Below, piece after piece: positions 21,710 through 45,676 of a stretch of 64,000 nucleotides of DNA. The notes under the pieces are model-generated. The model worked only from the letters and a program-made list of their open reading frames with translations. It did not search any database and was not told the DNA's origin. How positions within the stretch are numbered: the first letter of the stretch is position 1; every line of letters begins with the position of its first letter. The translations under genes and the position numbers were made by a program. This stretch comes from Clostridia bacterium (lineage in GTDB: Bacteria > Bacillota > Clostridia > Christensenellales > QALW01), in NCBI GenBank assembly GCA_017502165.1, contig JAFVVO010000043.1:26409-90408 (forward strand), in the 5' to 3' direction.

Positions 21710-21738
21710 TTGCAAAAAAGAAATCCGTGTGTTATAAT
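21710..21738 (+). promoter_or_regulatory. Sigma-A promoter of the diguanylate cyclase gene
   Basis: TTGCAA (21710-21715), 17-nt spacer, TATAAT (21733-21738). Confidence 0.6.
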
Positions 21739-21793
21739 ATAATTTAAATTATATATGCCGTGAAAAATATTATACTTTTAAGAAGGTGGAATT

Positions 21794-24094
21794 ATGCCAA
21801 AAACCTATGAGAAAAAGAAAAATCAGCGTCCTTACGGTTTGTACACAATAGTAACCGTTTTTTTGTTGTTTGCTGTTTTCTTCCTTATGGTAGGCTCGTT
21901 ATTTGTTTCGGCAGAAAACGATGCCTATGAAGACCTTCACGTGCAAACAAAACAAATTAAGGACGATCTGGTACTCCAGCTTATTTCCGACCGAGAGAAT
22001 CTTTCTACCATGGCAAACTTTGCCTCAAAGCTTTATAAGGACGGGGAAAGCTACGACCTTTTATTTGATTCCTTTAAGCCTATCGGTTTAATTGAAAACG
22101 TAGGTATTTTGACTCCCGAGAACGTTTTTATAACAAAGGCAGGCACCATTGACCTTTCGGACAAGATTTCTTTTGAAGAGGAAAAGGTTCGGGGCGCTTA
22201 CGTTAGCGGAAGAATAAAGGACTTAACCCGTGACAATTACGAAATTGTGCGCAGCGCCGTTCCCATTAAGGCAGACGGTCAGGTTATCGGTGTTCTTTAC
22301 GGCGTTATTAAGCTTGATACAATTGAGCAAAGATATGAACAAATGGCTAACGATATCGACGCTCAGCTTTTTGTTTACAGCAAAGATATCGGTGACCTTA
22401 TTATTGACAACGTGCACACAAAGCTTGGCAATATTTCGTTTTTGCAGGACCGCGAATATGCTCGCGGTTATTCCTACGAGCAAATAATATCGTCCGACAA
22501 AGGCTTTACGTCTTTTAAATCTGCCTACAGGGACGAGCAAGCTCACATGCACTTTTCCACTATTGAGGAATTGGGCTGGGTAATTGCCCTTGCAAGATAC
22601 GATTCCAACGTTTTTGCAACGGTATGGTCTCTTGCTCAAGTTCTGTTTACTGCATTTATTGCATTCCTCGTTGTTGTTGGTTCTTACGTCACCATACTGC
22701 TTACAAGTGAAAAGCACTTAGCTGAGGTAACGGACTGTGCAGCGGACATAAGAAAGCTTCTGCTTGATACCTCAGGCGGTGAAAACGCCATTTCTTTTGC
22801 ACTTAAACAGCTGTGTCAGTTTGCACGAGCCAGATCAACCATGCTTTTTGACGCTAACAGTGAAGAATTTCATTATCTTGCTCCCAAATTCATGGAAAAC
22901 ACCATTCCCGATGAAGAAAGAAATTATTTCCGAGGCGAGTTGCTTCTTTACGGAGCGGAAGTACATCAGACGACTAACTCAGCAGTTAACGTTTTAAGCA
23001 TTACACCTAACAAACACCTTTTGTTAACCAACCCCACGTTCTATGAATTCTTAAGAAAATATAAGATTAACAAGATTACCTGCTCTGCAACTGTTAACGC
23101 CACCAATCACGTTACTATTTTAGCGGCAGTTAACCCCAAACGGTTCCACCTGACGCGGTTGCTTGTTGAAAAAATTGCAGCGTGCTTCTCAATGGCGCTT
23201 TACAATAAGAACTATCTTAACCAGACCAAGCTTACCGCAACAACCGACTCTCTTACGGGAGCATTAAACCGCGTTGCGTACAAAGCCGACCTGTTAACTC
23301 TTGATGGTGAAAATGCTTCGGACTTTTCCTGCATTTACGTTGACGTTAACGAATTACACCTTATTAACAATACTCTTGGCCACGCCGCAGGCGACGAAAT
23401 GCTTATCTACGTTGCCAACACCTTAAAGGAAGTATTCTTCGGCCACAGTATTTACCGAATGGGCGGCGATGAATTCTTAGTGTTCTGCCGAAACGCCGAC
23501 CAAGAAACCGTAAAGAAAAATATCGAGTTTTTCGTTCAACAATTACAGCCGAAAAACTATCACGTGGCTATTGGTTATTCTTTCAGAACAAGAAATACTG
23601 ATACCGAAAGTATGGTAAAGGAAGCCGAGGTTCGTATGTACGAAGCAAAGGCTAAATACTATCAAAACAAAGAACAGCGCAAGACTGACTGGGTAGCTGA
23701 AAGCGAATACGTTCAGGTTAAAACGGGAATCCTTGAAATTGACGCTATGCTTTCGATATTAAAAGAAAGCTATAACGGCATTTACCGCGTTTCACTTAAC
23801 ACCGACAAGGCACACCGTATTTTAATGCCCGCGTATCTTAATTATAACGAAAACGAGGAACATTTTTCAAAGCTTTTCTCCAAATACGTTGCCGACTCCG
23901 TAGAGCCCGACTATCGCAGAGCTTTACTTAGCTTCTTAAATTACGAAGCCATCAAGCAACAGTTGCTTGATGGCAAAATCCCTAAAGCCACCTATAAAAA
24001 GCACAACGGAGAAAGGGTAACCTTAAGCGTTTACACGTTAGATGAAGCAGATGCTTCCGATTTCAACACCCTTTGGGTTTTTGCAAAAATGTGA
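21794..24094 (+). CDS. Membrane sensor diguanylate cyclase (TM - extracytoplasmic Cache-like region - TM - linker domain - GGDEF - C-terminal extension)
   Basis: 766 aa with TM segments near aa 14-38 and 275-300. The GGDEF domain has LTGALNRVAY, DVNELHLINNTLGHAAGDE and an intact GGDEF at 23462-23476. No RxxD I-site lies 5 aa upstream of the motif. Confidence 0.88.
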   Translation: MPKTYEKKKNQRPYGLYTIVTVFLLFAVFFLMVGSLFVSAENDAYEDLHVQTKQIKDDLVLQLISDRENLSTMANFASKLYKDGESYDLLFDSFKPIGLIENVGILTPENVFITKAGTIDLSDKISFEEEKVRGAYVSGRIKDLTRDNYEIVRSAVPIKADGQVIGVLYGVIKLDTIEQRYEQMANDIDAQLFVYSKDIGDLIIDNVHTKLGNISFLQDREYARGYSYEQIISSDKGFTSFKSAYRDEQAHMHFSTIEELGWVIALARYDSNVFATVWSLAQVLFTAFIAFLVVVGSYVTILLTSEKHLAEVTDCAADIRKLLLDTSGGENAISFALKQLCQFARARSTMLFDANSEEFHYLAPKFMENTIPDEERNYFRGELLLYGAEVHQTTNSAVNVLSITPNKHLLLTNPTFYEFLRKYKINKITCSATVNATNHVTILAAVNPKRFHLTRLLVEKIAACFSMALYNKNYLNQTKLTATTDSLTGALNRVAYKADLLTLDGENASDFSCIYVDVNELHLINNTLGHAAGDEMLIYVANTLKEVFFGHSIYRMGGDEFLVFCRNADQETVKKNIEFFVQQLQPKNYHVAIGYSFRTRNTDTESMVKEAEVRMYEAKAKYYQNKEQRKTDWVAESEYVQVKTGILEIDAMLSILKESYNGIYRVSLNTDKAHRILMPAYLNYNENEEHFSKLFSKYVADSVEPDYRRALLSFLNYEAIKQQLLDGKIPKATYKKHNGERVTLSVYTLDEADASDFNTLWVFAKM

Positions 24095-24101
24095 GTTTTT
24101 C

Positions 24102-24130
24102 TTGACAAAGACAAATCATTGTAATATACT
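24102..24130 (+). promoter_or_regulatory. Sigma-A promoter upstream of the riboswitch and EPS operon
   Basis: TTGACA (24102-24107), 17-nt spacer, TATACT (24125-24130). Confidence 0.6.
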
Positions 24131-24134
24131 GTCA

Positions 24135-24268
24135 ATATAAATATCGGCAAAACCGATGAAAATCGGCGACGCAAAGCAAAGAGGCTACGGTTTTATACTA
24201 TGCCAGTCCAGCTGCAATGATAAGAAGTCTTTGTTAAGGCATTCTATTGTTGCAGCTTTTTATTTTTC
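24135..24268 (+). promoter_or_regulatory. c-di-GMP-I (GEMM-I)-like riboswitch with intrinsic terminator as expression platform
   Basis: GGCAAA-ACCGAT-GAAA-ATCGG-C-GACGCAAAGC ... GGCTA..TATGCCAG-TCCAGCTGC matches the GEMM-I hallmarks (GCAAA, a GNRA-capped hairpin, GACGCAAAGC, GCCAG). It is followed by the stem AGCTGCAA / TTGCAGCT and TTTTTATTTTT. The left arm of that stem overlaps the 3' end of the aptamer. Confidence 0.72.
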
Positions 24269-24342
24269 AAATCAGAACTAGCACGTTTCGTATCAAAATT
24301 TTATATTATGTTAGCACACTAACGTAAGCGAGGTAAGAAAAA

Positions 24343-25188
24343 GTGACCAGTAATTTTATTGAAATTTTCAAAAATATTGCATCAAACAGCGATGTAGTAA
24401 ATGACGAAAATGCAATTTTCGAAAGAATTGAGGAAGCATTTGCTAACCGCGAATTCAAAACGCATCTTCAGTTTATAGTAAACAACAAAACCAAGGCGGT
24501 CTCTTCTGCGGAGGCTCTTTCCCGATGGGAAATTTCTGCGGACGAGATTGTTTCGCCCGGATTATATCTTCCCTTAATTGAAAAGGCAGGGCTCAGCGCT
24601 AAATTTGACTATTATATGTTTGAAAGCGTTTGCGCCAAGCTTGCCCAATGGAAAAATACCGAGTTTGGCTCGGTAACCGTTTCCTGCAACTTCTCAAGAA
24701 TAACTCTTTCGGAAAACGATTTCATCGAAACTGTTACAGCCATTGCAGATAAATATGATTTTGACAGAAAAAATCTGTTAATTGAAATTACCGAAAGCAC
24801 TATGGAAAGAAACGTTGAGGTTGCTCTGGATAACGTTGTGCGCGCAAAAGAACTCGGTTTCCGCATTGCTTTAGACGACGTTGGCAGCGGTTACACTTCA
24901 CTTATCTGTTTGTGCAAATATCCCGTTGACATTATTAAAATCGACAGAGAAGTGCTTCTATTAGCAAGTGAAACAAGAGGCAAAAAGCTTCTTCTTGGCA
25001 TTATTGCTTTATCACATTTTTTGAATCTCGAGGTTGTATGTGAAGGCGTTGAAACAAGTGAGCAAAACGACCTGGTTTCAAACAGTGATTGCGATTATAT
25101 TCAGGGCTGGTACTATTTTAAGGCGCTTGATGCAAAAAAGGCTGAAGAATGTGCCCGCGAATACGCTGAAAAGCTTGCAAAAAACTAA
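24343..25188 (+). CDS. Stand-alone EAL-domain c-di-GMP phosphodiesterase
   Basis: 281 aa, GTG start after GAGGT. EAL lies at 24511-24519 (AEALSRWE). Also has NFS, EITES, DDVGSGYTS, KIDRE, EGVET and QGWYY, so the full catalytic signature is present. Confidence 0.88.
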   Translation: MTSNFIEIFKNIASNSDVVNDENAIFERIEEAFANREFKTHLQFIVNNKTKAVSSAEALSRWEISADEIVSPGLYLPLIEKAGLSAKFDYYMFESVCAKLAQWKNTEFGSVTVSCNFSRITLSENDFIETVTAIADKYDFDRKNLLIEITESTMERNVEVALDNVVRAKELGFRIALDDVGSGYTSLICLCKYPVDIIKIDREVLLLASETRGKKLLLGIIALSHFLNLEVVCEGVETSEQNDLVSNSDCDYIQGWYYFKALDAKKAEECAREYAEKLAKN

Positions 25189-25209
25189 AACGCTTTTAAG
25201 GACGTTGTT

Positions 25210-25752
25210 ATGAATAAAGCATTTTCAAAAGATCTGTACCGTTATTACGGTGATAAAGGTGAATCTCTGCTTCAGAGGCTTTTGCGCCCCGTAGAGCTGA
25301 AATATATCGCTCTTTTCAGAAAGGCTAACGGTTGCCCTTTTGCTCCCCTGAAAGCATATTACACTCTGCGCCTTAAGCTGATGTCAAACAAAACCCATAT
25401 ACAGATTCCTGCAAGGACTCAAATAGGGGAAGGCTTTTATATCGGACACAGCGGCAGAGTGATTATTCACCCCGACGCTAAAATCGCCTCCAACGTCAAC
25501 GTGGGAACGGGTGTTACCATAGGGGCAGAAAACCGCGGAGAGCGCAAAGGCGCACCCACCCTTTGCGGAAACTGTTGGATTGGTACAAACTCGGTTATAG
25601 TAGGCAACGTTACCATAGGGGAAGACGTTATGGTTGCCCCCTTAACCTTTGTTAATTTTGACGTACCGCCACACAGCATAGTGGTTGGAAACCCCGCAAA
25701 AATAATAAGCAAAGAAGACGCTACAAAAGACTACGTACACAATAAAATCTGA
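25210..25752 (+). CDS. Hexapeptide-repeat (LbH) O-acetyltransferase, CysE/WbbJ-like
   Basis: Left-handed beta-helix repeats (IGEGFYIGHSGRVIIH, VGTGVTIG, IGTNSVIVGNVTIGEDVMV) and VVGNPAKII. Confidence 0.8.
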   Translation: MNKAFSKDLYRYYGDKGESLLQRLLRPVELKYIALFRKANGCPFAPLKAYYTLRLKLMSNKTHIQIPARTQIGEGFYIGHSGRVIIHPDAKIASNVNVGTGVTIGAENRGERKGAPTLCGNCWIGTNSVIVGNVTIGEDVMVAPLTFVNFDVPPHSIVVGNPAKIISKEDATKDYVHNKI

Positions 25753-25770
25753 TTTAAGGAGGCAATCGGG

Positions 25771-27270
25771 ATGGCAAAAAAAGATAACAGAATTAAATAT
25801 AATCTGTTGTCAGGCTTCGTATATCAAATTGTCCTGATTGTCCTTGGTTTTTTGCTTCCAAGACTGTATCTGGAAAATTTCGGCTCCGAGGTTAATGGTG
25901 TTTTATCTACCATAAAGCAGATTTTCGCATATATGACTCTGCTTGAAGCAGGAGTAGGTCTTGCAACCACCCAGGCGCTCTACAAGCCCGTTGCCGAAAA
26001 AGACCACGCAAAAACAAGCTCCATTATTTCGGCAACAAATAACTACTACGTTAAAATCGGCTTTATTTATTCGGCCATAGTCCTCGCTATCGCCTGTGTA
26101 TATTCCTTCATTATTCCAACGGGTATATCCTCTTGGGTTGTTTTCAGCCTAATAGTTTTAACCGCCTTACCCTCATTATTCAGCTACTTTATACAATTAA
26201 AATACAGAATACTGTTAGAAGTTGACGGCAGAAAGTACGTTATAACCAATTCCGAAACTATTTTGCAGCTTCTTGCCAACGCAGGAAAAATTCTCGTACT
26301 TCTTTTAACTGACAGCCTTATTCTCATTCAGCTTGTATATTGTATCTTATCTCTTATTCAGCTTGCTTACGTTTTCATTCACGCAAAACGCAGATACACT
26401 TGGCTCGATTTTAAGGCTGAGCCTGATTTTGAAGCTATTTCTCAGAGGAAATCCGTTCTTGTGCATCAGATTTCAGGAATGGTTTTCAATAATACCGACA
26501 TTTTATTGCTTTCCTTCTTATGTGATTTTAAGATCGTAAGCGTTTACACCATATACAACATTTTCTTCTCTCAAGTACAAACCTTTATAACTACTATTAC
26601 TTCCGGCTTCAGCTTTGCCTTAGGGCAAATGTTTCACACCGACAGAAAAAAGTTTATGCAGGTTTTTTCGGTTTACGAAACCTTTTACATAATGGGCACC
26701 TTTGTTATATATACTTTAATGGCTGTATTTCTGCTTCCCCTTATTCAGATTTACACAAAGGGAATTAACGACGCAGAATATACAAACGTATTTTTAGTGC
26801 TTCTGTTCGTTATTATGAATCTGTTAGCCAACGGAAAGCTTCCCGTTAACCACGTTATTGAGTTTTCGGGAGCATTTGAGAAAACACGTTGGCACGCCAT
26901 TGCAGAAATGGTGATTAACGTTACCGTTTCAATCGTAGCAATTCTTCTGTGGGGCATTTGCGGCGCAATTCTCGGCACTATCGTCGCCCTTTTATTCAGA
27001 AGCTCTATAATGATTTACTATTCCAACAAAAAAATTCTTCAGCGAAGCATTTTTGAAACGTACAAGCTGTGGATTGTTAACGGAGGCGTGTTTGCCTGCA
27101 TAATGGCTATCTTCTTTGTTGATAGCTTCAGCGGTCTCTCCTTTTTGGAGCTTTTACTGCAAGGAATTATTCACACCGCGTGGATTATCCCTTTGTATCT
27201 TGTGGCAAATCTTATTTTCTTTAGAAGTGCCTTTAAGAATTTCCTTGTTCTTTGGAGGGCGAGAAAATGA
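25771..27270 (+). CDS. wzx: Polysaccharide flippase (Wzx / MOP superfamily)
   Basis: 499 aa with roughly 12-14 TM helices, located in a glycan locus. Confidence 0.75.
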   Translation: MAKKDNRIKYNLLSGFVYQIVLIVLGFLLPRLYLENFGSEVNGVLSTIKQIFAYMTLLEAGVGLATTQALYKPVAEKDHAKTSSIISATNNYYVKIGFIYSAIVLAIACVYSFIIPTGISSWVVFSLIVLTALPSLFSYFIQLKYRILLEVDGRKYVITNSETILQLLANAGKILVLLLTDSLILIQLVYCILSLIQLAYVFIHAKRRYTWLDFKAEPDFEAISQRKSVLVHQISGMVFNNTDILLLSFLCDFKIVSVYTIYNIFFSQVQTFITTITSGFSFALGQMFHTDRKKFMQVFSVYETFYIMGTFVIYTLMAVFLLPLIQIYTKGINDAEYTNVFLVLLFVIMNLLANGKLPVNHVIEFSGAFEKTRWHAIAEMVINVTVSIVAILLWGICGAILGTIVALLFRSSIMIYYSNKKILQRSIFETYKLWIVNGGVFACIMAIFFVDSFSGLSFLELLLQGIIHTAWIIPLYLVANLIFFRSAFKNFLVLWRARK

Positions 27271-27998
27271 TTCCCAAAGTCATTCATTACTGTTGGTTCG
27301 GCAAAGGCGAAATGCCGAAGCTTGCTAAAAAATGTATTAAAAGCTGGAAAAAATTCTGCCCCGATTACGAAATAATTTGTTGGAACGAAGAAAATTTCGA
27401 TTTTTCTCAAAACCTTTACGCCCGTCAGGCATACGAAGCGGGCAAGTGGGCTTTTGTAAGCGATTATGCCCGCCTTAAAGTTATTAACGATTTCGGCGGA
27501 ATATATCTCGACACTGACGTTGAGCTTCTTAAGCCTATAGATTTTTTGCTTTCTTACAAAGGTTTTATGGGTTTTGACGAAAAGGGCATAGTTGCAACGG
27601 GGCTTGGCTTTGGTGCAGAAAAGGAAAACCCAATCGTCAACGAATTTTTGAAGGATTACGACGAAATACCCTTTATTCTGCCTGACGGAAGCTTTGACCT
27701 TACCCCTTGTCCTGACAGAAACACCGCCGCATTAAAACGGCTTGGAATGGACACTGAAAACACAAATCAGACTTTTCTTGATACGGTTTTTCTTCCGAGA
27801 GAATATCTTTGCCCTATGGATTATTACACGGGCAAGAAAACTATAACGAACAACACAGTTTCAATACATCATTATTCTGCCTCGTGGACCTCGTCGGTTA
27901 CAAAACGAACAACTGCTATTAAAAGAATAATCGGTGTTAAACTATACGATAAGCTTTACGGAAAATTTTTGCATAAACTGAAATGGTTGGAGTGGTAA
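27267..27998 (+). CDS. Glycosyltransferase family 32-like (Gly_transf_sug / capsular synthesis type)
   Basis: IPKVIHYCWFG, DYARLKVINDFGGIYLDTDVE (DxD). ATG 27267 overlaps the wzx stop (ATGA). Confidence 0.8.
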   Translation: MIPKVIHYCWFGKGEMPKLAKKCIKSWKKFCPDYEIICWNEENFDFSQNLYARQAYEAGKWAFVSDYARLKVINDFGGIYLDTDVELLKPIDFLLSYKGFMGFDEKGIVATGLGFGAEKENPIVNEFLKDYDEIPFILPDGSFDLTPCPDRNTAALKRLGMDTENTNQTFLDTVFLPREYLCPMDYYTGKKTITNNTVSIHHYSASWTSSVTKRTTAIKRIIGVKLYDKLYGKFLHKLKWLEW

Positions 27999-28000
27999 TA

Positions 28001-29533
28001 ATGCCCGAGGAATTGTTTGCTAAACTTAAAAAGAATATTCTCCCCCAATGGAAAGCCTGCTTTTTTGCAGCAATTATCATTGGGTTAATTGCCCACGCAT
28101 ATAAAATTACAAATTGGCTTCCTAATTGGGATTCACTTGTTTTCCGTTATGACGAGCAAAATATGCTTTCCCTGGGCCGTTGGTTTTTGCCCGTTGCCTC
28201 AGCCCCAAGCTCCTTTTACGATTTGCCTTGGCTTGCGGGCTTTATATCCATTTTGTTTCACGCCCTCGGCGCAGTCGTTATCTGCCGAATCTTTAACGTT
28301 AAAAAGAACTTAACGGCAATTTTAATCGGTGGCGCAGTAGTTTCATTTCCTACCGTTACTTCCGTATTGCTTTACAACTACGTTGCCGATGCCTATGCGT
28401 TATCATTTCTTTTTGCCTGCCTGTCGGCGTTTTTGTTAACTAAAGAAAAGCCTAATCATATTGCTGCAACGATTTTACTCGCTTTATCCGTAGGAATTTA
28501 TCAGGCTTACGTTACCGTAACGGTAATGCTTCTTCTTTGTTTTCTTGTGCTTGAAGCCTTAAAAAAAGAGGTTACCGCAAAGGAGCTTTTAATCAAATGC
28601 GGAAAATTCTTGCTTACGGGCATTGCAGGAATGGCTGTTTATTATCTGGTTTTAACCGTTACCCTGAAGCTTACTAATACCGAGCTTTTAGATTATCAGG
28701 GATTAAGTGATGCAACAAGCCTTGCAGGCTTAGATATTTTAGGCTCACTATACGTTATCAAAGAATCCTTTGTTAATTATTTCTTTGATTTTTCCGCAGG
28801 TATAAGCCTTTTTAACGTACTTAACTTACTGTTTTTAAGTGCAACGGTGGTTTTGTATCTGCTTGAAATTATAAAAAACAAGCTTCCCTTAGGAAAGATT
28901 TTACTTGTTTTACTTTTTGCCCTTTTATTGCCCTTTGGCGCAAGTATTCTTGCTTTTATTAACAGCAGTATTGATTACCACAATTTAATGAAAATGGGCT
29001 TCTTCGTGTTTTACCTGTTCTTCATTCTTCTTTTTGAAAAATTCGAAGCAGGCAAAAATAAAGCAAGCCTTATTAAGCCTTGGCTTGTGCTTATATTAAC
29101 AAGCCTGCTGATATTTAATCAGATAGTTATTGCTAACGTAAGCTATCACAAAATAAATATTGCTTACGAAAAATCCTACGGCGTGCTGATTCGCATAGCA
29201 GATAGAATAGAGCAAACCGAGGGCAGTGAAAACTGCAGTAAACTTTTAGTTGTAGGCTCCCTTGAAAACAGTGAGGGCTACAGTTCTTTGGTTCACCTTG
29301 ATATGACCGGCACCACCGACGGCTTTATTCTTCGTGCAGACGATGAAATAGTAGGTCAGAGCGTTTTATGCAGTGCCTTGAACGACTACTGTGAAACCAA
29401 CTACACCTTTTTAGCAGGTGACGAAAAAGCAGAGGTTCTTTCTAAAATAGACGAAAGCTCCTTAGGAATTTGGCCTGCAAAAAATTCCGTCTTGGTTTTT
29501 GAAGACGTTATCATTGTTAAACTTGGCGATTAG
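28001..29533 (+). CDS. Polytopic membrane protein, GtrII/GT-C-like glucosyltransferase-domain protein
   Basis: About 11 TM helices plus a soluble C-terminal domain. The N-terminal HAYKITNWLPNWDSL motif resembles the Glucos_trans_II family. The call is tentative. Confidence 0.5.
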   Translation: MPEELFAKLKKNILPQWKACFFAAIIIGLIAHAYKITNWLPNWDSLVFRYDEQNMLSLGRWFLPVASAPSSFYDLPWLAGFISILFHALGAVVICRIFNVKKNLTAILIGGAVVSFPTVTSVLLYNYVADAYALSFLFACLSAFLLTKEKPNHIAATILLALSVGIYQAYVTVTVMLLLCFLVLEALKKEVTAKELLIKCGKFLLTGIAGMAVYYLVLTVTLKLTNTELLDYQGLSDATSLAGLDILGSLYVIKESFVNYFFDFSAGISLFNVLNLLFLSATVVLYLLEIIKNKLPLGKILLVLLFALLLPFGASILAFINSSIDYHNLMKMGFFVFYLFFILLFEKFEAGKNKASLIKPWLVLILTSLLIFNQIVIANVSYHKINIAYEKSYGVLIRIADRIEQTEGSENCSKLLVVGSLENSEGYSSLVHLDMTGTTDGFILRADDEIVGQSVLCSALNDYCETNYTFLAGDEKAEVLSKIDESSLGIWPAKNSVLVFEDVIIVKLGD

Positions 29534-29544
29534 AGGTGTGAAAA

Positions 29545-30396
29545 ATGGTATATTTTTGTGCGGACGATTACGGCATAGCCAAGCAATGCAATAACCGCAT
29601 AGAAAAATGCCTTGATGACGGCGTATTAAACAAGGTAAGCGTTTTGCCTAACGGTGAAACGGAAAACTTTAAGCTTCGTCTTGAAGAAAAAGGTGCAAAA
29701 ATTTCCCTGCATCTTAATTTGGTAGAGGGGTATCCCTTATCAAGCCCGCAAGACGTTCCCTTGCTTATAACCCCGCAAGGCACTTTCAAACATTCGTTTG
29801 TAGGATTGTTGTTCTTATCTCTTTCAAAAAACAGAAGAGATTTTGAAAAACAGATATATAAAGAAATACAAAAGCAGCTGGAATTTTGGAAAACAAACTT
29901 GGGCGATGCACCCCTTTGGCTTGACAGCCACCAGCACGTGCATATGATTCCCCTTGTTTTCAGAACCTTGCTTAAAGCGCTTGAAGACGAAAAAATTAAG
30001 GTAGAATATCTTCGTATTCCTTCCGAGCCGATTTTACCGTATCTGCTTACACCGAGCTTATATCTTAAGCTGCGTCCCATAAACCTTATAAAGCAATGGC
30101 TGTTGAATTTTTTAGCATTAGTAAACAGAAAAGCTCTTAAAAAATCAAAAATTCCTTACGCTTACTTTATGGGCGTTGCCTTTTCAGGCTTTTTAACCAA
30201 GGAAAAAATTGAAAAATTGCTTCCTAAATACTTAAAACTTGCCCAAATGCACAATAAAGACGTGGAAATTACTCTGCACCCCGGATTTTTGGAAGCGGGT
30301 GAAAGCCTTTCCATCGGTTGCAGGGCAGATTTTGAGAAATTTTATTTTTCATCAGGGCGCAAACAAGAATTCGACACCCTGTTAAATCTTAAATAA
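29545..30396 (+). CDS. YdjC/ChbG-family carbohydrate deacetylase
   Basis: CADDYGI, LHLNLVEG and DSHQHVHM motifs. Confidence 0.8.
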   Translation: MVYFCADDYGIAKQCNNRIEKCLDDGVLNKVSVLPNGETENFKLRLEEKGAKISLHLNLVEGYPLSSPQDVPLLITPQGTFKHSFVGLLFLSLSKNRRDFEKQIYKEIQKQLEFWKTNLGDAPLWLDSHQHVHMIPLVFRTLLKALEDEKIKVEYLRIPSEPILPYLLTPSLYLKLRPINLIKQWLLNFLALVNRKALKKSKIPYAYFMGVAFSGFLTKEKIEKLLPKYLKLAQMHNKDVEITLHPGFLEAGESLSIGCRADFEKFYFSSGRKQEFDTLLNLK

Positions 30397-30423
30397 TCAT
30401 TATGTTGAAAGAAGGTTCTGTAA

Positions 30424-31104: not shown

Positions 31105-31126
31105 ACTCTTTTTAGGAGAAATAAAA

Positions 31127-32257: not shown

Positions 32258-32275
32258 CGGAAAGGAATTTTATTT

Positions 32276-36531: not shown

Positions 36532-36561
36532 ATACTGATTAAAATAGGGAAAGGAGGGCAA

Positions 36562-39083: not shown

Positions 39084-40135
39084 TGGCTCAACCAAAGGTA
39101 AGTGTTATCGTTCCGGTTTATAATACGGAAAAGTATCTTGAAAGATGCTTATCTGCAATTAAAAACCAAACGCTTAAGGACATCGAAATAATTATCGTTG
39201 ACGACGGCTCAAAGGAAGCCTGCGCCGCTTTATGCGACGAAATGGCAAAAACTGATTCTCGCATTAAGGTTATTCACAAGCAAAACGGCGGATTAGGCTT
39301 TGCCCGTAACACAGGGCTTTCTGCCTCAACCGGCGAATTTGTAGGCTTTGTGGACTCCGACGACTATATTGTTCCCGAAATGTATGAAAATCTTTATTCT
39401 GCCGCTAAAAGCTACTCTGCCGACCTGGTTATTTCAGGCTTTTGCTTTGTAGGCGGTAACACCTTTGCCGATAATGACGTTATTACAAAGGCTTATTTTG
39501 ACAAAGACACTGTTTTTGAAAATGACGAGCTTAAATCCTTGCTTTTAGGTGTTATAGGCGCATTTCCAAAGGAGCCTGACGACAGCCGATACGGCGTAAG
39601 CGTATGTAAAAATATTTTTAGAACTGCCTTAATAAAGGACAAAGAACTTGAGTTTTTATCTGAAAGAGAAATTCTTTCGGAGGACACCTTGTTTATAGTA
39701 GATTTTATTAAAAATTCCGACCGCGCCGTTGGCGTAAAGGAAGCATATTATTGCTATTGCCGTAACGAAGATTCTCTTTCAAAATCTTATAACAGCACCC
39801 GTTTTGAAAAAAGTATCGTTTTCTTAGACGCTCTTGAAGAGCGTATTAAGGATTTTGTTTCAGAGAAAGAATACCGTCTTTATCTTGACCGCTTGATTCA
39901 AGGGTTTGGCAGAATTTTATGCTCTCAGGAAATCGTCCATGCAAAAATCGAAAAAATCAAGTTTAGCATTTTAAGAAAACGTTTAAGCGAAATATGCACA
40001 CACTCAAAGATAAAATCCGTATTAAAAACGTATCCTTGGTATAAATTGCCCGTAAAGCAGGCAGCTTTTGCCTTCGCAATGAAGCATAAGCTTTTTTTAC
40101 TTCAAAAAATTATGGTGCTTCTTAGGGATAGATAG
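39080..40135 (+). CDS. GT2 glycosyltransferase
   Basis: VSVIVPVYNTEKYLERCLSAIKNQTLKDIEIIIVDDGS and FVDSDD. Confidence 0.88.
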   Translation: MMAQPKVSVIVPVYNTEKYLERCLSAIKNQTLKDIEIIIVDDGSKEACAALCDEMAKTDSRIKVIHKQNGGLGFARNTGLSASTGEFVGFVDSDDYIVPEMYENLYSAAKSYSADLVISGFCFVGGNTFADNDVITKAYFDKDTVFENDELKSLLLGVIGAFPKEPDDSRYGVSVCKNIFRTALIKDKELEFLSEREILSEDTLFIVDFIKNSDRAVGVKEAYYCYCRNEDSLSKSYNSTRFEKSIVFLDALEERIKDFVSEKEYRLYLDRLIQGFGRILCSQEIVHAKIEKIKFSILRKRLSEICTHSKIKSVLKTYPWYKLPVKQAAFAFAMKHKLFLLQKIMVLLRDR

Positions 40136-40144
40136 GAGTTGTTT

Positions 40145-41170
40145 ATGCTTTTTTCAATAATAGTTCCCATATACAACGTTGAAAAATATATAAAAAACTG
40201 CATCGAAAGCGTACTGACCCAATCCTGCGCCGATTTTGAGTTAATTCTTGTTGACGACGGCTCACCCGACGGTTGTCCTGCAATCTGTGACGAGTTTGCA
40301 AAAAGTGATGCAAGAATTAAGGTTATACATAAACAAAACGGAGGCCTTGTAAGCGCAAGGCAGGCAGGCATTAAGGTTGCCCAAGGAGAATATATTATAA
40401 ATCTTGACGGTGACGACGCTCTTTGCCCCGATGCCCTTGCTTCCGCGCAAAAAATAATTGCCGAAACTAATGCTGACATTATTTCCTTTGCCCATAAGCG
40501 TTTGCTTAACGGAGAAATCAGTGAAGTTCAAACTGATTTAATCCCCGAAGGCTTCTTTAATAAGGAGCAAATTAAGGAACATATTTATCCAAAGTTATTG
40601 TCCGATAAAAATATGGAGCACTTCTTCTACTTTTTGTGGGGAAGAGCATTTAAGAAAGAGCTTATTTTGCCCCATCAGCTTGCAGTTAATCCTGCCATCT
40701 CCTTAGGAGAAGATTTAAGCTGCATAGTGCCTTGCTTTTTAGATGCAAATACCGTTTTTGTAAGCAATTTTCCCTTTTATCTTTACACTATCCGTAACGA
40801 TTCCATTTCAACAGACTTCAAAACTCAGCAAATTACGCAGATTCAGGACGTTATTTTAAGTCTGAAAAAAATAGAAAACAATAAGCCCGTGGATTTTGAG
40901 GAGCAAATTTCACGTTATTCCTGCTTTATGTGCTTTGCAATTTTAGCCGCTGCAGCAGAGGGTAACCATTTTAATTCCCTTAAAAAAATAACGGAGCTCA
41001 TAAATTCCTCAATCCACAAGGAAGAAATCAAAAAAGCACGTTTTGAACGTCTTTCGGCAAAAAGCCGTATCGCAATTTTTTTGATGCAGAAAAACGCATT
41101 GGGATTAGCCTTTTATTTCCTTTATATTTGCAAAGAACTAAAAAGAATAAGAAAGAGTGACAAGAAATGA
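40145..41170 (+). CDS. GT2 glycosyltransferase
   Basis: FSIIVPIYNVEKYIKNCIESVLTQSCADFELILVDDGS and LDGDD. ATG 40145 lies 6 nt after AGGAG. Confidence 0.88.
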   Translation: MLFSIIVPIYNVEKYIKNCIESVLTQSCADFELILVDDGSPDGCPAICDEFAKSDARIKVIHKQNGGLVSARQAGIKVAQGEYIINLDGDDALCPDALASAQKIIAETNADIISFAHKRLLNGEISEVQTDLIPEGFFNKEQIKEHIYPKLLSDKNMEHFFYFLWGRAFKKELILPHQLAVNPAISLGEDLSCIVPCFLDANTVFVSNFPFYLYTIRNDSISTDFKTQQITQIQDVILSLKKIENNKPVDFEEQISRYSCFMCFAILAAAAEGNHFNSLKKITELINSSIHKEEIKKARFERLSAKSRIAIFLMQKNALGLAFYFLYICKELKRIRKSDKK

Positions 41171-42246
41171 ACGAAACTCCAAAAATTTCTTTAATAATGA
41201 GCGTGTATAACGGCGAGGATTACCTTGCCGAAGCTATTGAAAGCGTGTTAAGGCAAACCTTTTCCGCTTGGGAGCTTATAGTTATAAACGATTGCTCTAC
41301 CGATTCAACAAGCGAGATTTTAAGTTCTTTTGCCGCCAAAGACGAAAGAGTTAAGGTTCACGTTAACGAGGTTAATTTAAGACTTCCGTCTTCGCTTAAC
41401 AAGGCATTGTCCTTAGCAAAAGGAAAATATATTGCAAGAATGGACGCAGATGACGTTTGCTTGCCCGACAGATTGCAAAAGCAGTTTGATTTTATGGAAA
41501 GCAATCCGGACGTTGCACTGTCTTCCTGCAGATTTATGACGCTTAAAAACGGAGTAATTTCTTCAGGCGGCTGCGGCGGTAAAAATGATTCAGAATCTAT
41601 TAAGGCATTACTTTTAGTAACAAACCCCATTCTTCACCCCGGCATTATTGCCAAGGCTGAAGTAATTAAAAGCCTTGGGTACGACAAAAACTTCACCTGC
41701 ACCGAGGATATGGAATTATGGACCCGCTTTATTTTAGCAGGCCACAAGATTGAAATTTTATCCGACTATCTTATGATGTACCGCCTGCACGATAAACAAA
41801 TTACCGAAACAACCTTGGAAAAGCAAAAGGGCGAGGTTATTACCATTCAGAAAAAATATCTTGGCGCCTTGCTCGAACCAATGACAAAAGAGCAGGAAGA
41901 CTTTTATATTAAAGAAATTTATTTTAGAAAAAATACCGACATTAACGCTTTCTGCCAATTTTATAAGTGGTTAAAGGCCCTTAACAAAAAAACTAAGGTT
42001 TTGTCTAAAGAAAGCTTAAACTATGCCTTGTTTGAAATCTTGGCTGAGTATAAAAGAAACGGCTTGTCAAAATCCAACCTTATTAAAGCAATGCTTTGCT
42101 TTGGTATTCCCTTTTTATTTAAGGAAATTCCTAACCGTAAAAAGCGCGCCCGCGTTGATGGACTAAAATGCATTGAAGCCGCCGAGAAAATAGGATTGGC
42201 TATGTCAGGCGGTACAGTAGAATTTCCCACATTTTCAAAGAAATAA
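41167..42246 (+). CDS. GT2 glycosyltransferase
   Basis: ISLIMSVYNGEDYLAEAIESVLRQTFSAWELIVINDCS and MDADD. ATGA overlap with the previous gene. Confidence 0.88.
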   Translation: MNETPKISLIMSVYNGEDYLAEAIESVLRQTFSAWELIVINDCSTDSTSEILSSFAAKDERVKVHVNEVNLRLPSSLNKALSLAKGKYIARMDADDVCLPDRLQKQFDFMESNPDVALSSCRFMTLKNGVISSGGCGGKNDSESIKALLLVTNPILHPGIIAKAEVIKSLGYDKNFTCTEDMELWTRFILAGHKIEILSDYLMMYRLHDKQITETTLEKQKGEVITIQKKYLGALLEPMTKEQEDFYIKEIYFRKNTDINAFCQFYKWLKALNKKTKVLSKESLNYALFEILAEYKRNGLSKSNLIKAMLCFGIPFLFKEIPNRKKRARVDGLKCIEAAEKIGLAMSGGTVEFPTFSKK

Positions 42247-42260
42247 TTTAGGAGCATAAT

Positions 42261-43622
42261 ATGCACATATTTGAAAACCCACTCGTAATAATAGGAATTT
42301 TAGCTTTTTGCTTTCTTGCGCTGGTTTCAGTTGCCATTTATTTTGCCGTTAAAGGCGTAAAAACCGCAAGCGGCCACGCAGAAAACGACTTTTCAACAAT
42401 AAACAAGCTTGAAAACGAATTCAGAAAATTAGGTAAGCACCGTGCAGACAGATGGGTGATGTACGTTAGCGTTTCATCTGCTACACCGCCAAGTGATTAT
42501 GCTGAGCCAAACGTTTTTTCCGAAATCAAACGCTCTCTGCTTTCTATGTTTGCAAACGAATACGATTATATTGCAATTTATGATGATAACAGCTACGTTG
42601 TACTTGCAAACCGTGAAAAAGCAGAAATAGAAGAAACAATAGAAATCTGTCAGGCAGAATTAAATAAATGTCTTTTAAGCTATAGCGCTCTTAACGTGGT
42701 AAACGTAAGAATAGGCTCCCATTGTGCCGACGGCTCTCACGTTACCTTTGACGAAGCAATTTCCCGTGCAAAACAAGCTTGTTTGCTTGCAAAAAATAAA
42801 AATGTTTTCTATTCTCAGTGGGATATTACCAGCGGAAAGGCCTTGGAAAAAAAGATTAAAATTGAAAACAATATTGAAAAAGAAATTGATAACAACCGTT
42901 TCTTTTTAGAATATCAGCCGGTTTTAGATGCCAAAACCAAGAAGATTATAGGCGCTGAGGTTTTATCCCGCTTAAATTCCGAAAGTGACGGAGTTTTAAC
43001 CCCCGGCAGCTTCTTATCCGCGTTAGAATCCGTAGGCATTAACGAAAAATTCGACTATTATATTTTTGAAAAGAACTGTAAGTGGATTTCCAACGACAAA
43101 CCTCAGCGGGAAGGCTACAAATATACCATAAACTTTTCCCGTTCTACTTTGAGTGAGCCTGAATTTGTAAACAAAATTATAAACATTGCCGAAAAATACG
43201 ATTTGAAATTTTCCTGCCTTGCGGTTGAAGTGCTTGAAGATAAAAACGTTACCGGCGAAGCAAAAAAACAAATGATTGATAACCTTTCTGCGCTTAAAGA
43301 AAAAGGTGTTTCCATTTTGCTTGACGATTTTGGCAGCGGTTACACAACCTTTGGAGATTTACAAAGCTTTGACGTTTCTATAGTAAAAATTGACAAATCC
43401 ATAACCCAGAACGCCGTTACCGAAACCGGCTTTATCATACTTAAAAATATTATTCAGACTGCCCACGATATAGGCTTTAAGACGGTTTGCGAGGGTGTTG
43501 AAAACAAGGAGCATGAGGAAGCTGCAATAAAAGCAGAATGTGATATGCTTCAAGGCTTCTACTATTACAAGCCTATGCCCGTTACAATGCTTGAAAAACT
43601 GTTTAACAATAATAAAAATTAG
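42261..43622 (+). CDS. Membrane-anchored degenerate-GGDEF / EAL (EVL) c-di-GMP phosphodiesterase
   Basis: One N-terminal TM segment. The GGDEF-like region has YDDNSY in place of GGDEF. The EAL domain has EVL (42957-42965), INFS, EVLED, DDFGSGYTT, KIDKS, EGVEN and QGFYY. Confidence 0.8.
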   Translation: MHIFENPLVIIGILAFCFLALVSVAIYFAVKGVKTASGHAENDFSTINKLENEFRKLGKHRADRWVMYVSVSSATPPSDYAEPNVFSEIKRSLLSMFANEYDYIAIYDDNSYVVLANREKAEIEETIEICQAELNKCLLSYSALNVVNVRIGSHCADGSHVTFDEAISRAKQACLLAKNKNVFYSQWDITSGKALEKKIKIENNIEKEIDNNRFFLEYQPVLDAKTKKIIGAEVLSRLNSESDGVLTPGSFLSALESVGINEKFDYYIFEKNCKWISNDKPQREGYKYTINFSRSTLSEPEFVNKIINIAEKYDLKFSCLAVEVLEDKNVTGEAKKQMIDNLSALKEKGVSILLDDFGSGYTTFGDLQSFDVSIVKIDKSITQNAVTETGFIILKNIIQTAHDIGFKTVCEGVENKEHEEAAIKAECDMLQGFYYYKPMPVTMLEKLFNNNKN

Positions 43623-43659
43623 TTAGATTATACTGAACACAAAACCTGGAGGAACTTAA

Positions 43660-44586
43660 ATGCTTTCTGTTATAATTCCCGCATTTAACGAAGAAAAATC
43701 CATTTCCCGCGCATATTCCGTTATTTCGGGTCTTTTAGAAAACGCAAACATCGAAAACGAGCTTATTTTTATTGACGACGGCTCAACCGATGCAACGTAT
43801 AAAGAAATACGGACCTTGGCGGAAAAAGAAAATAACGTTTGCGGTCTTCATTTTTCGAGAAATTTCGGAAAAGAAGCGGCGATTTCAGCAGGTCTTGCGG
43901 CGGCAAAGGGTGATTGCGTTGTAGTTATTGATTGTGACCTTCAGCATCCACCGGAGAAAATTATCGAAATGTACGCCTTATGGCAAGAAGGGTTTGAGAT
44001 CGTTGAAGGCATTAAAAGCTCCCGCGGTAAAGAAAAAGCCCTTCACGGCTTAGCGGCAAAGAGCTTTTATTCAATTATCAGCGCCCTTGTTGGCTTTGAT
44101 ATGTCAAACGCATCGGATTTTAAGCTTTTAGACCGCAAGGTTGTTGACGTACTTAATAATATTCCCGAAAAGAAAGGCTTTTTTAGAGCAATTTCATTTT
44201 GGGTAGGATATAAAAAAGCAACTGTGGAGTTTGAGGTTCAGGAAAGAGAAGAGGGCACTTCAAAATGGAGCACTATCGGTCTTTTGAAGTACGCAATTTC
44301 AAATATTTCCGCCTATTCAACGGCGCCTATGCAAATCGTTACGGTACTTGGTGTTATTATGCTTTTTATTACAGCCGTTTTCTTTGTTTGGGCTCTTATT
44401 GATAAAATTGCAGGCCGCGCCCTTGAAGGTATGACAACGGTTATCATTATTTTGATTTTTATAGGAAGCATTATGATGATAAGCCTTGGTATTATCGGCT
44501 ATTACGTTGCCCGTATTTACGAAGAAATTAAAGGCAGACCCAAGTATATTGTTTCTGCAAAATGCGAAAGCAAAAAAAATAATTAA
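43660..44586 (+). CDS. Polyprenyl-phosphate glycosyltransferase (GT2, GtrB/CsbB/ArnC-like)
   Basis: LSVIIPAFNEE, IDDGSTD, DCDLQHPPE and two C-terminal TM helices. Confidence 0.85.
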   Translation: MLSVIIPAFNEEKSISRAYSVISGLLENANIENELIFIDDGSTDATYKEIRTLAEKENNVCGLHFSRNFGKEAAISAGLAAAKGDCVVVIDCDLQHPPEKIIEMYALWQEGFEIVEGIKSSRGKEKALHGLAAKSFYSIISALVGFDMSNASDFKLLDRKVVDVLNNIPEKKGFFRAISFWVGYKKATVEFEVQEREEGTSKWSTIGLLKYAISNISAYSTAPMQIVTVLGVIMLFITAVFFVWALIDKIAGRALEGMTTVIIILIFIGSIMMISLGIIGYYVARIYEEIKGRPKYIVSAKCESKKNN

Positions 44587-44598
44587 AAGGAAAATAAT

Positions 44599-45600
44599 AT
44601 GGAAAGAAACGTCCTTGTTGATAAGCTTAAGGGATATGCCTGCTTTTTAGTGTTATTAGGCCACGTTATAATGGGCATAAGGTTGTCCGGCATCTCGGTT
44701 CCGTTCTTTTTTGAAGGTACCGAACAGTTTTTGTGGTCTTTTCACGTGGCTCTTTTTATGTTTTTAAGCGGTGTAGTCTATAAAGAAACAGGTGGCTGGA
44801 CAAGTAAAAAAACAAAAGGCAGATTTATTCTTAACAAGCTTCTTAATTTAGGAATACCTTACGTTGTTTTTTCTGCCGTTTACATTATAATTAATAGCTT
44901 TGTAGGAGAAGCCAATACCCACTCTTCTGTTGCAGATATTTTATTTATCTGGAAAACACCAGTTGCACAGTATTGGTTTTTATACGCTTTATTTTTCCTT
45001 TTTGTTATTTGGGTTTGTTTGTCCGGCATATTAAAAAATTGGCAAATAACTCTTTTTACAGTTTTATTGGGCTATGTTTTACCGCTTATTCCGGGATTCT
45101 CGTGGGGTCCGTTTGATATTGTATTTTATTCTGCCTTAGCCTTTGGCTTGGGAACCTCGGTAGATTTCAAAAGTTTAACTAAAACTTCCGCTTTTATTAA
45201 ATATTTAACGGTGGCAATGCACCTTGCAGTAAGCATTACGCTAATCGTTTTCGGCTTAATAGAGAAGGCCTTTATTAAAGAAATAATGACCTTATTCGGA
45301 ATTTATTCAAGCATTTCTTTTATTTATTTGCTTCAGGATATTAAGCCCGTTTCACGTTTTTTACTGTTCATTAATAAGTATTCTTTTCAGACTTATCTTT
45401 TACATACAATTTTTACTGCAGGAGCACGCGTTATGTTGCTTCGGGCAGGCGTTTCACAGTGGTGGATACACCTTGTTTTAGGCACCCTTTGCGGCATAGC
45501 TTTTTCAGTTTTAGCATCAATAATTGCAAAAAAAATAAAGGTGCTCAATATTTTCTTTTTCCCCACAAAAACTGTAAAATCCTTACAAAAACAACAGTAA
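44599..45600 (+). CDS. Acyltransferase-3 family membrane O-acyltransferase
   Basis: About 10 TM helices. The N-terminus LKGYACFLVLLGHV is typical of Acyl_transf_3. Confidence 0.8.
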   Translation: MERNVLVDKLKGYACFLVLLGHVIMGIRLSGISVPFFFEGTEQFLWSFHVALFMFLSGVVYKETGGWTSKKTKGRFILNKLLNLGIPYVVFSAVYIIINSFVGEANTHSSVADILFIWKTPVAQYWFLYALFFLFVIWVCLSGILKNWQITLFTVLLGYVLPLIPGFSWGPFDIVFYSALAFGLGTSVDFKSLTKTSAFIKYLTVAMHLAVSITLIVFGLIEKAFIKEIMTLFGIYSSISFIYLLQDIKPVSRFLLFINKYSFQTYLLHTIFTAGARVMLLRAGVSQWWIHLVLGTLCGIAFSVLASIIAKKIKVLNIFFFPTKTVKSLQKQQ

Positions 45601-45648
45601 TATTAACTGTTTACAAAGCATCCTTCTTCAAAATTAAACAACCTTTCT

Positions 45649-45676
45649 ACCCGAAGTTAATATCTTCGGGTTTTTA
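45649..45676 (+). terminator. Rho-independent terminator ending the Wzx/Wzy operon
   Basis: ACCCGAAG-TTAATAT-CTTCGGGT followed by TTTT. Confidence 0.8.

Follow-up and report, generated by a model that had tools for sequence, protein, structure and literature searches.

A conserved Wzx/Wzy-type glycan locus of uncultured gut Clostridia with a c-di-GMP-I riboswitch, predicted c-di-GMP turnover genes and a co-polymerase-like protein fused to a degenerate GGDEF domain

How might the assembly of a polysaccharide by a Gram-positive gut bacterium be placed under the control of the second messenger cyclic diguanylate (c-di-GMP)? This question is raised by a compact block of the plus strand (positions 21794-45671) in a stretch of 64,000 nucleotides from a Clostridia bacterium (contig JAFVVO010000043.1), the whole of which is called the window below. 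The listing of open reading frames (ORFs) and scans with hidden Markov models (HMMs) resolve this block into a sensor diguanylate cyclase, a c-di-GMP-I riboswitch, 19 packed genes and an end terminator. All 20 proteins of the locus were scanned with Pfam and NCBIfam. After the leader, the gene order is a stand-alone EAL phosphodiesterase (EAL1), a left-handed beta-helix (LbH) acyltransferase, a probable Wzx, a glycosyltransferase (GT) of type GT32, a GtrII-type GT-C, YdjC, a Bac_transf polyprenyl-phosphate glycosylphosphotransferase (PGT), a GT4, a metallophosphoesterase (MPE) and a polysaccharide co-polymerase-like (PCP) protein, PCP1. The second half comprises PCP2::GGDEF* (an asterisk denotes a degenerate GGDEF or EAL domain), Wzy, a GT4, three GT2, a transmembrane (TM) GGDEF*-EAL protein, a GtrB/PgfS-type GT2 and an Acyl_transf_3 protein. 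An initial annotation had reported five c-di-GMP elements here, and the cyclase, the riboswitch with its terminator, the EAL protein, the PCP::GGDEF* protein and the GGDEF*-EAL protein were all recovered in their places by Pfam or Rfam. We consider it probable that the block represents a glycan locus conserved among gut Clostridia that are uncultured and resemble Oscillospirales/Acutalibacteraceae, and that this locus would make a decorated heteropolysaccharide through a Wzx/Wzy pathway, with its transcription turned on by c-di-GMP.

The evidence for transcriptional control is found in the leader that separates the cyclase gene from EAL1. A promoter-like site (24102-24130, + strand; TTGACA-17-TATACT, 11/12 matches) starts 8 nt past the stop codon of the cyclase, and 6 nt past this match starts a c-di-GMP-I (GEMM-I) aptamer (24136-24219, +). 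The aptamer matches the Rfam family RF01051 with 60.7 bits (gathering score 35, E-value 2e-9) over the model positions 1-87 of 87, and reaches 100 bits with a covariance model built in this analysis; the orthologous leaders score 57-67 bits against RF01051. The initial annotation was thus right that a riboswitch of this family, with its terminator, stands at the head of a compact plus-strand block. The expression platform is an intrinsic terminator (24210-24268, +; -23.2 kcal/mol) composed of a hairpin at 24210-24257 and a U-run. Folding of the region 24131-24275 shows this hairpin with 13+8 bp, and UUUUUAUUUUU follows it (z = -3.2 and -4.2). The 5' arm of this terminator overlaps the final 10 nt of the aptamer: it takes up the four paired nucleotides that close the 3' helix strand plus the six 3'-flanking nucleotides of the model, and aptamer and terminator are therefore mutually exclusive. 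Without ligand, the terminator prevails in the minimum-free-energy fold. Twelve leaders of this type were collected from the window and related loci. The overlap between aptamer and terminator is kept in all 11 leaders that were folded, and the terminator stem is kept across an alignment of 11 terminators (L073 replacing L085), with double changes in 5 of its 13 pairs. From the secondary structure of this conserved architecture we infer that the leader would act as a transcriptional ON switch.

One probable ligand contact of the aptamer varies among the orthologous leaders. The window aptamer has a G at position 24146, which is position 11 of the Rfam model and column 11 of the leader alignment. 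Mapping from the Vc2 sequence and from PMC6140456 suggests that this position is equivalent to G20 of Vc2, which recognises one guanine of the ligand. Among 11 leaders, the column is an A in six (L005, L039, L085-L088) and a G in five (window, L044, L048, L066, L090). The G20A variant of Vc2 binds cyclic GMP-AMP (cGAMP) as well as c-di-GMP (PMC6140456), and some of the orthologous operons with an A at this position may respond to both dinucleotides.

The 19 genes behind this leader extend from 24343 to 45600 with a maximum intergenic gap of 37 nt and four ATGA overlaps, exactly the tight packing that had been described. Just two strong terminator-like sites were detected on the plus strand, one upstream of the cyclase (21507-21532) and one closing the operon (45649-45671; 8-bp stem with 5 GC pairs, then TTTTT), so that the single strong 3' terminator expected near 45649 was found. 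A single transcript for the whole operon is plausible from this layout.

Besides the riboswitch, the locus encodes predicted enzymes of c-di-GMP turnover. The membrane sensor diguanylate cyclase (21794-24094, +; 766 aa) is preceded by a promoter-like site of its own (21710-21738, +; TTGCAA-17-TATAAT with TG) lying downstream of the terminator 21507-21532. The protein is composed of a TM segment, a dCache-like ectodomain, a second TM segment, a linker, a GGDEF domain and a C-terminal extension. Its TM segments (residues 19-37 and 283-301) flank a weak match to dCache_1 in Pfam, and a precomputed match to dCache_1 exists in several relatives of the cyclase. The GGDEF domain (Pfam E 4e-19) has an intact RMGGDEF signature, of which GGDEF is invariant in the orthologues, as is the first Asp of the DxD motif. 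The extension that follows it (residues 640-766; 23711-24091) is a conserved segment of about 125 aa with many positions invariant in the orthologues, for example in YNGIYRV and RILMPAYL, and it has no match in Pfam. On the degradation side, EAL1 (24343-25188, +; Pfam EAL E 2e-57) is the first gene after the leader, and a single-TM protein of 453 aa (42261-43622, +; TM residues 8-26) combines a GGDEF* with an EAL domain (Pfam EAL E 3e-57). Scanned by itself, the stretch of this protein that precedes the EAL domain matches GGDEF with an E-value of only 1e-4 and has DDNSY in place of the signature. By inspection, the catalytic set E(A/V)LxR, N, ExxE, DDxG, KxD, EGVE and QG is complete in both EAL domains, and both proteins are predicted to be active phosphodiesterases. 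The earlier proposal of a locus with its own cyclase and two EAL proteins was borne out at the level of the sequence.

A copy of the dCache-GGDEF cyclase, 50-60% identical, also heads a different operon in four other loci (L086:10001-21991, L090:10001-21225, L096:10001-21986 and L098:10001-22004). This second operon encodes, in order, a VTC domain protein, DUF4956, CotH, an unknown protein of 723 aa, a HEAT-like protein, a processive GT2 (chitin-synthase-like) and a GGDEF*-EAL protein, the N-terminus of which is SBP_bac_3-like in L086. An RNA scan of L086 and L090 detected a c-di-GMP-I riboswitch after the cyclase copy in both. The pair of cyclase and riboswitch looks like a cassette that has been reused for a second polymer system, of synthase type.

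What the 19 genes would assemble can be read from their domain content. The initiating PGT (30424-31104, +), of the small Bac_transf type, is recognised by Bac_transf (E 2e-64) and by the NCBIfam model EPS_sugtrans (E 7e-78), and the Wzy-type polymerase (36562-37872, +) by Pfam Wzy_C with 36.9 bits for a cut-off of 31.7; at the level of these profile matches, both assignments are solid. The probable flippase of Wzx type and MOP superfamily (25771-27270, +) is a polytopic membrane protein with at least 10 hydrophobic segments, which a record of the Joint Genome Institute (JGI) calls an O-antigen/teichoic acid export protein. The other transferases predicted to build the repeat unit are a GT32-type enzyme with a DXD sugar-binding region (27267-27998, +; Pfam Gly_transf_sug E 7e-16, Caps_synth), whose start was adopted from the gene call in L001, two GT4 (31127-32257 and 37869-39083, both +) and three consecutive GT2 (39080-40135, 40139-41170 and 41167-42246, all +). 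Further genes point to decoration of the polymer. A GtrII-type polytopic glycosyltransferase (27983-29533, +; Pfam Glucos_trans_II E 3e-49; 11 hydrophobic segments) would act outside the membrane to add a side-chain sugar, and a polyprenyl-phosphate sugar synthase of the GtrB/PgfS/ArnC type (43660-44586, +) consists of a GT2 domain and two C-terminal TM segments (NCBIfam PgfS E 8e-77, ArnC-type E 3e-43). In one relative, L097, an extra GtrA-like gene (GtrA_DPMS_TM; L097:13334-13726) lies between EAL1 and LbH and completes the GtrA/GtrB/GtrII set, which is missing from the window locus. Acylation is represented by the LbH (hexapeptide) acyltransferase (25210-25752, +; Pfam Hexapep E 4e-11), a YdjC-family carbohydrate deacetylase-like protein (29545-30396, +; Pfam YdjC E 2e-37) and the Acyl_transf_3 (AT3) membrane O-acyltransferase (44599-45600, +; Pfam E 8e-27). 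Neither a processive GT2 synthase nor a PilZ domain was found by Pfam in the proteins of the locus. We file the locus as one that would work like a Gram-positive Wzx/Wzy pathway: of the parts announced by the initial annotation, the PGT and the Wzy_C protein are present, together with a probable MOP-like flippase and the PCP-like protein. Its gene inventory holds for the parts that it listed; four genes had been missed (GtrII, GtrB, MPE and PCP1) and there are four GT2 rather than three.

Three consecutive genes precede wzy. The MPE (32276-33247, +) matches Pfam Metallophos (E 1e-9) and the NCBIfam models YaeI-like (E 1e-21) and LpxG-like (E 1e-15). Its Lys/Arg-rich N-terminus is followed by a single N-terminal TM segment, and the enzyme is predicted to face outward. 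The idea that it acts as a cytoplasmic cyclic-nucleotide phosphodiesterase was rejected on this topology (positive N-terminus and TM segment, with an extra TM segment in the fusion protein P0195 described below). The LpxG/YaeI-like matches prompt the speculation that it might process or release a pyrophosphate-linked polymer. PCP1 (33268-34626, +) has a TM-ectodomain-TM layout without a cytoplasmic domain and is a paralogue of PCP2: compared with the PCP2 family profile, hhalign gave a probability of 97.6% (E 4.5e-12), and BLASTP supported the relation with an E-value of 4e-4. PCP2::GGDEF* (34648-36531, +; 627 aa) consists of a TM segment, a Wzz/Wzc-like ectodomain of about 420 aa, a second TM segment and a cytoplasmic GGDEF* (Pfam E 1e-12). 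Weak matches to Pfam Wzz (E<=1, best 1e-6) occur in 49 of the 84 representatives of its family. Compared with the sequences of the PDB, the family profile retrieved GGDEF proteins only, with an E-value of 3e-13 against solved cyclases. We regard PCP2 as a probable member of the PCP superfamily.

Although GGDEF-like, the cytoplasmic domain has lost the motifs for catalysis and for canonical c-di-GMP binding. Aligned to DgcR, it displays EIS at the DxD metal site, N(G)NGSF at GGEEF and GKTN at the RKSD inhibitory site (I-site). The signature is GNGSF in the window; YNGxGSF is invariant among close relatives and a motif 'YN...F' is found in 48 of the family's 76 long representatives. At the I-site position, R..D was found in none of the 48 representatives that could be scored. 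From these replacements, the domain is predicted to be unable to make c-di-GMP and to be without the only well-established binding mode of degenerate GGDEF domains. A post-translational c-di-GMP input through the tail of this protein, which the initial annotation had put forward, thus found no support in the motifs. Neither Pfam nor NCBIfam detected a BY-kinase (bacterial tyrosine kinase) or other P-loop kinase, a phosphatase of the PHP or low-molecular-weight (LMW) type, or an LCP domain in the 20 proteins of the locus, which falls outside the class of PCP-2 BY-kinase co-polymerases. Most likely, the GGDEF* of PCP2 serves regulation or scaffolding in the place of the kinase.

This arrangement extends well beyond the window. 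A HMMER search with the PCP2 ectodomain collected 663 representatives of clusters at 50% identity, 128 of them at E<=1e-30, which fall into two length groups, one of about 450-480 aa without a cytoplasmic domain and one of about 590-700 aa with a GGDEF*. Two proteins, P0250 and P0251 (context L093), carry an EAL* in the place of the GGDEF*, with EVSN (for ExxE), DNFG and KLS in P0250 and EISS in P0251. Another one, P0195 (context L094), is a GGDEF*-TM-Metallophos fusion. In the contexts of four distant members of the family, a PCP1-like gene always lies directly upstream of PCP2, and the three longer contigs have a Wzy_C gene and glycosyltransferases in the same locus. A Metallophos gene is adjacent or fused in these contexts, a Wzx recognisable by Pfam occurs in one locus, and the glycosyltransferases differ from those of the window. 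MPE, PCP1, PCP2::(GGDEF*/EAL*) and Wzy are hence a recurrent module that is not peculiar to this operon, and the EAL* and MPE fusions are Rosetta-stone links between PCP, c-di-GMP-type domains and MPE.

Is the association of this module with c-di-GMP genes conserved among relatives of the host? The exact PCP2 protein was found on metagenome contigs and in an NCBI metagenome-assembled genome (MAG) named 'Clostridia bacterium'. When one genome per GTDB species was scanned, relatives of PCP2 were encoded by 283 stretches. The best 80 of these 283 are 68-83% identical, and all of them come from MAGs of gut or rumen origin that bear names such as Acutalibacteraceae, Oscillospiraceae or Clostridia. 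In a synteny matrix obtained with tblastn, about 60 of these species-level MAGs retain every gene of the operon, at 44-94% amino-acid identity. The clustering of c-di-GMP and glycan genes is not due to chance, because the same set recurs in about 60 other species-level genomes. The order cyclase / riboswitch / EAL1 is found in the window, L039, L085, L087 and L088, and by gene order alone in L097; in L005 the riboswitch precedes EAL1 and the region of the cyclase is beyond the edge of the locus. Elsewhere the riboswitch lies between LbH and Wzx (L044, L073), directly before Wzx (L048), or after the cyclase, which there follows the operon (L066). Another layout, cyclase-LbH-Wzx-...-GtrB-EAL1 with no riboswitch between cyclase and operon, was observed in L068, in L058, L082 and L084 by the same gene positions, and in L055 without LbH. 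The same operon order, with EAL1 last and no cyclase visible at the edge of the locus, characterises L051, L054, L057, L061, L070, L078 and L080. A metagenome scan with the cyclase recovered 7 loci. Among 120 cyclase homologues listed (best match 72%), none belonged to the clade that has no riboswitch between cyclase and operon. Despite the changes in order, the cyclase, EAL1 and GGDEF*-EAL remain with the locus, and this persistent linkage of signalling and glycan genes through rearrangement is good evidence that they work together. As for the layout that the initial annotation proposed to compare with relatives, from cyclase and riboswitch to EAL and PCP::GGDEF, the coupling of c-di-GMP and glycan genes is kept in about 60 species and the exact order is one of several.

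Several neighbours of the operon deserve mention. About 130 nt past its terminator begins an ABC-transporter-type glycan module (45799-50141, +), composed of a 676-aa double GT2, an ABC-2 permease, an ABC ATPase and a GT2; this places two polysaccharide systems of different export types side by side. The left part of the window contains an S10-Clostridia ribosomal-protein leader (17468-17544, -; 35.7 for a gathering score of 35.1), which heads a ribosomal protein operon on the minus strand. Two ORFs, at 50561-52018 (-, 485 aa) and 17889-18857 (+, 322 aa), have no match in Pfam.

The evidence leans towards a working model that combines transcriptional control by an ON riboswitch with feedback by phosphodiesterases. 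In this model, the membrane cyclase, expressed from its own promoter and equipped with an extracytoplasmic dCache-like sensor, would raise the level of c-di-GMP. The dinucleotide would bind the GEMM-I aptamer and prevent the formation of the terminator, and the RNA polymerase would then read into the 19 genes. EAL1 would be made first and the membrane GGDEF*-EAL later, both degrading c-di-GMP and thereby exerting a negative feedback. On undecaprenyl phosphate, the PGT, the two GT4, three GT2 and the GT32 would put together a repeat unit, which Wzx would flip across the membrane and Wzy would polymerise with the pair of paralogous PCP proteins. Side-chain sugars would be added outside the membrane by GtrB and GtrII, and acylation would be modified by LbH, YdjC and AT3. 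Speculatively, the outward-facing MPE might process or release the lipid-linked polymer. With no BY-kinase/phosphatase module, PCP2 would regulate or scaffold polymerisation in the kinase's place by its dead GGDEF without I-site.

A number of observations weigh against parts of this model. The organism is uncultured and the locus is known here from its sequence alone. The activity of the cyclase is assumed: near its metal site the protein reads DVNELH for a consensus DxDxFK, with several divergent positions. In a clade including L051, L055 and L068, no riboswitch lies between cyclase and operon; therefore, gating by the riboswitch is not universal, or the riboswitch is located upstream of the sequence covered in that clade. 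Within the operon itself, a promoter-like match of 11/12 (TTGACA-16-TATGAT; 29921-29948, +) inside the YdjC gene could uncouple the distal genes and give them an expression independent of the riboswitch. The Wzx candidate has no match in Pfam or NCBIfam, and its AlphaFold2 (AF2) model, built from a shallow alignment, is of low confidence, with a predicted local distance difference test (pLDDT) of 50.3; yet its top 35 Foldseek matches are all MurJ/MATE/WzxE (best E 1.9e-3). Similarly, no Wzz match at the Pfam threshold was obtained for the PCP2 of the window, and a search with its N-terminal 470 aa at E<=10 gave nothing relevant. With a pLDDT of 60.6, the AF2 model of this protein is of low confidence too; its best Foldseek match is Wzc (9r68_I; E 1.5e-5, probability 1.0, but TM-score 0.19), which speaks for a Wzc-like fold. 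Finally, the gene content of capsule loci is rarely so constant across species as it is here, and this constancy would fit a housekeeping wall polymer as well.

This last point leads to a different reading of the product, in which the locus makes a constitutive envelope polymer (a secondary wall polysaccharide, or a glycan of the S-layer or of proteins) instead of a conditional matrix exopolysaccharide (EPS), and the c-di-GMP genes tune the locus or share it without a link to biofilm formation. A gene content unusually constant over about 60 species differs from that of typical capsule loci, the decoration genes (GtrB/GtrII, YdjC, AT3) resemble systems that decorate wall polysaccharides, an ABC-transporter-type glycan module follows immediately downstream, and housekeeping genes surround the locus. 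We nevertheless hold this reading to be improbable. The leader terminates by default, which argues for a conditional expression; Pfam detected no ligase of the LCP family in the locus; and four co-inherited genes for c-di-GMP turnover or of GGDEF type are hard to regard as incidental. The leader is also central to the proposal that the riboswitch is an OFF switch, or that it senses another dinucleotide such as 3',3'-cGAMP, in which case the operon would be repressed by c-di-GMP or independent of it. The switching direction is indeed read from secondary structure, and six of the 11 leaders carry an A at the G20-equivalent position, a substitution with which cGAMP is bound as well (PMC6140456). 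The window aptamer itself has a G there, however, and the competition of the terminator with the 3' strand of the aptamer in 11/11 leaders is the layout of an ON switch; a separate anti-terminator is neither required nor visible. The neighbouring genes are moreover of GGDEF/EAL type, and we judge both variants of this proposal to be highly improbable for the operon of the window.

The ON riboswitch with its feedback thus remains our preferred explanation of the transcriptional control, and a further issue is whether c-di-GMP also acts on the polymerisation itself. The two-tier model of the initial annotation regarded PCP2::GGDEF* as a true c-di-GMP receptor, which would imply a non-canonical site and a post-translational activation of polymerisation comparable to that by PelD, YdaK and PssE. 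Several features would accord with a receptor function: the GGDEF* is strongly conserved, with its YNGxGSF invariant in close relatives and 'YN...F' in 48/76 long representatives; an EAL* occupies the same position in P0250/P0251, with substitutions typical of receptor-type EAL domains; and the locus supplies its own cyclase and phosphodiesterases. Opposed to these features is the loss of the canonical I-site, where the RxxD of DgcR has become GKTN and no R..D occurs in 48 representatives. The GG(D/E)EF active site and the metal ligands are lost too, which leaves no known site for c-di-GMP or GTP. Degenerate GGDEF domains that bind no nucleotide do exist, as in GdpS and CsrD. A receptor with a non-canonical site is in our opinion rather unlikely, and direct sensing of c-di-GMP by the GGDEF* of PCP2 is, more generally, doubtful. 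Only as a tentative idea do we suggest that PCP2::GGDEF*, with its EAL* and GGDEF*-MPE variants, could define a new class of co-polymerases with a sensor domain of cyclic-dinucleotide type in place of the BY-kinase, in which the binding of c-di-GMP or another guanine nucleotide, or the docking of the cyclase or phosphodiesterase encoded by the locus itself, would gate Wzy, as a layer added to the ON riboswitch and its feedback.

How does the locus compare with known systems? Vibrio VPS (VpsT/VpsR) and P. aeruginosa Psl (FleQ) are EPS of Wzx/Wzy type under the control of c-di-GMP. EpsI/Nla24, a regulator that binds c-di-GMP, is encoded within the Wzx/Wzy EPS locus of M. xanthus (PMC7484181), and the premise of the initial annotation that c-di-GMP-controlled EPS machines are all synthase-dependent was wrong. 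The window locus would share with these three systems the raising of Wzx/Wzy-type EPS expression by c-di-GMP, with a regulator in or beside the locus. They are found in diderm bacteria and use transcription factors, whereas here the regulator would be a riboswitch in cis, the predicted turnover enzymes are in the operon and a c-di-GMP-type domain is carried by the PCP. Among the Gram-positive systems, S. pneumoniae cps and B. subtilis eps possess the CpsC/CpsD or EpsA/EpsB module, made of a PCP-2b and a BY-kinase. The window locus resembles them by its monoderm host and by a long operon uniting a Bac_transf PGT, GT4, GT2, a probable Wzx, Wzy, a PCP-like protein of TM-ectodomain-TM layout and acetyltransferases. 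It differs from them by having two paralogous PCPs, one of them fused to a GGDEF*, and an ecto-MPE, with no BY-kinase, PHP phosphatase or LCP found, and its control would be exerted by a riboswitch in place of a protein regulator.

Catalytically dead GGDEF domains are known from other EPS operons. In PelD (Pseudomonas), YdaK (B. subtilis ydaJKLMN) and PssE (Listeria), c-di-GMP is bound at an RxxD I-site that has been retained, and the machines they activate are processive synthases. Like PCP2, they are membrane proteins with a dead cytoplasmic GGDEF encoded inside an EPS operon, and the Firmicute examples adjoin dedicated c-di-GMP enzymes. In PCP2, unlike in these proteins, no RxxD stands at the I-site position, five residues ahead of the degenerate GG(D/E)EF; the fusion partner of the domain is PCP-like, and the locus encodes a pathway of Wzx/Wzy type in which no processive synthase was detected. 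With other riboswitches of the family RF01051, the leader shares a full-length aptamer scoring above the gathering score and a platform of terminator type. The target would here be a 19-gene glycan operon that starts with an EAL gene, for which no counterpart was met in the literature searched, and the leaders alternate between G and A at the G20-equivalent position. In the literature searched, which covered few subscription journals and can give only a weak negative, we found no description of a PCP, Wzz or Wzc fused to a domain of GGDEF/EAL type, of a whole Wzx/Wzy operon, headed by a phosphodiesterase gene, under the control of a GEMM-I riboswitch, or of an ecto-MPE associated with such a PCP. 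The initial annotation knew of no Wzx/Wzy pathway with this layout; that part stands for the literature searched, and the case of M. xanthus shows that c-di-GMP control of a Wzx/Wzy EPS is not new as such. The undescribed part is apparently the module MPE + PCP1 + PCP2::GGDEF*/EAL* + Wzy, which replaces the BY-kinase module.

Nearly all that is understood of how Gram-positive bacteria control Wzy-dependent polymerisation comes from the CpsC/CpsD tyrosine-kinase module. The module described here, which offers a testable handle on a kinase-independent control of Wzy polymerisation, is widespread, with 663 clusters at 50% identity and relatives in 283 species-level genomes, mostly of gut and rumen Clostridia known from metagenomes alone. 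In the clade of the window it is embedded in an operon with its own cyclase, riboswitch and phosphodiesterases, and this locus provides a testable example of a riboswitch placed over a large glycan operon with negative feedback. If the GGDEF*/EAL* domains do sense a nucleotide, c-di-GMP would be tied directly to chain polymerisation, a link so far shown for synthase-type systems only, and a Wzx/Wzy pathway would for the first time be seen under the post-translational control of a second messenger. The polymer is probably a matrix or surface polysaccharide of uncultured anaerobes that are abundant in the gut.

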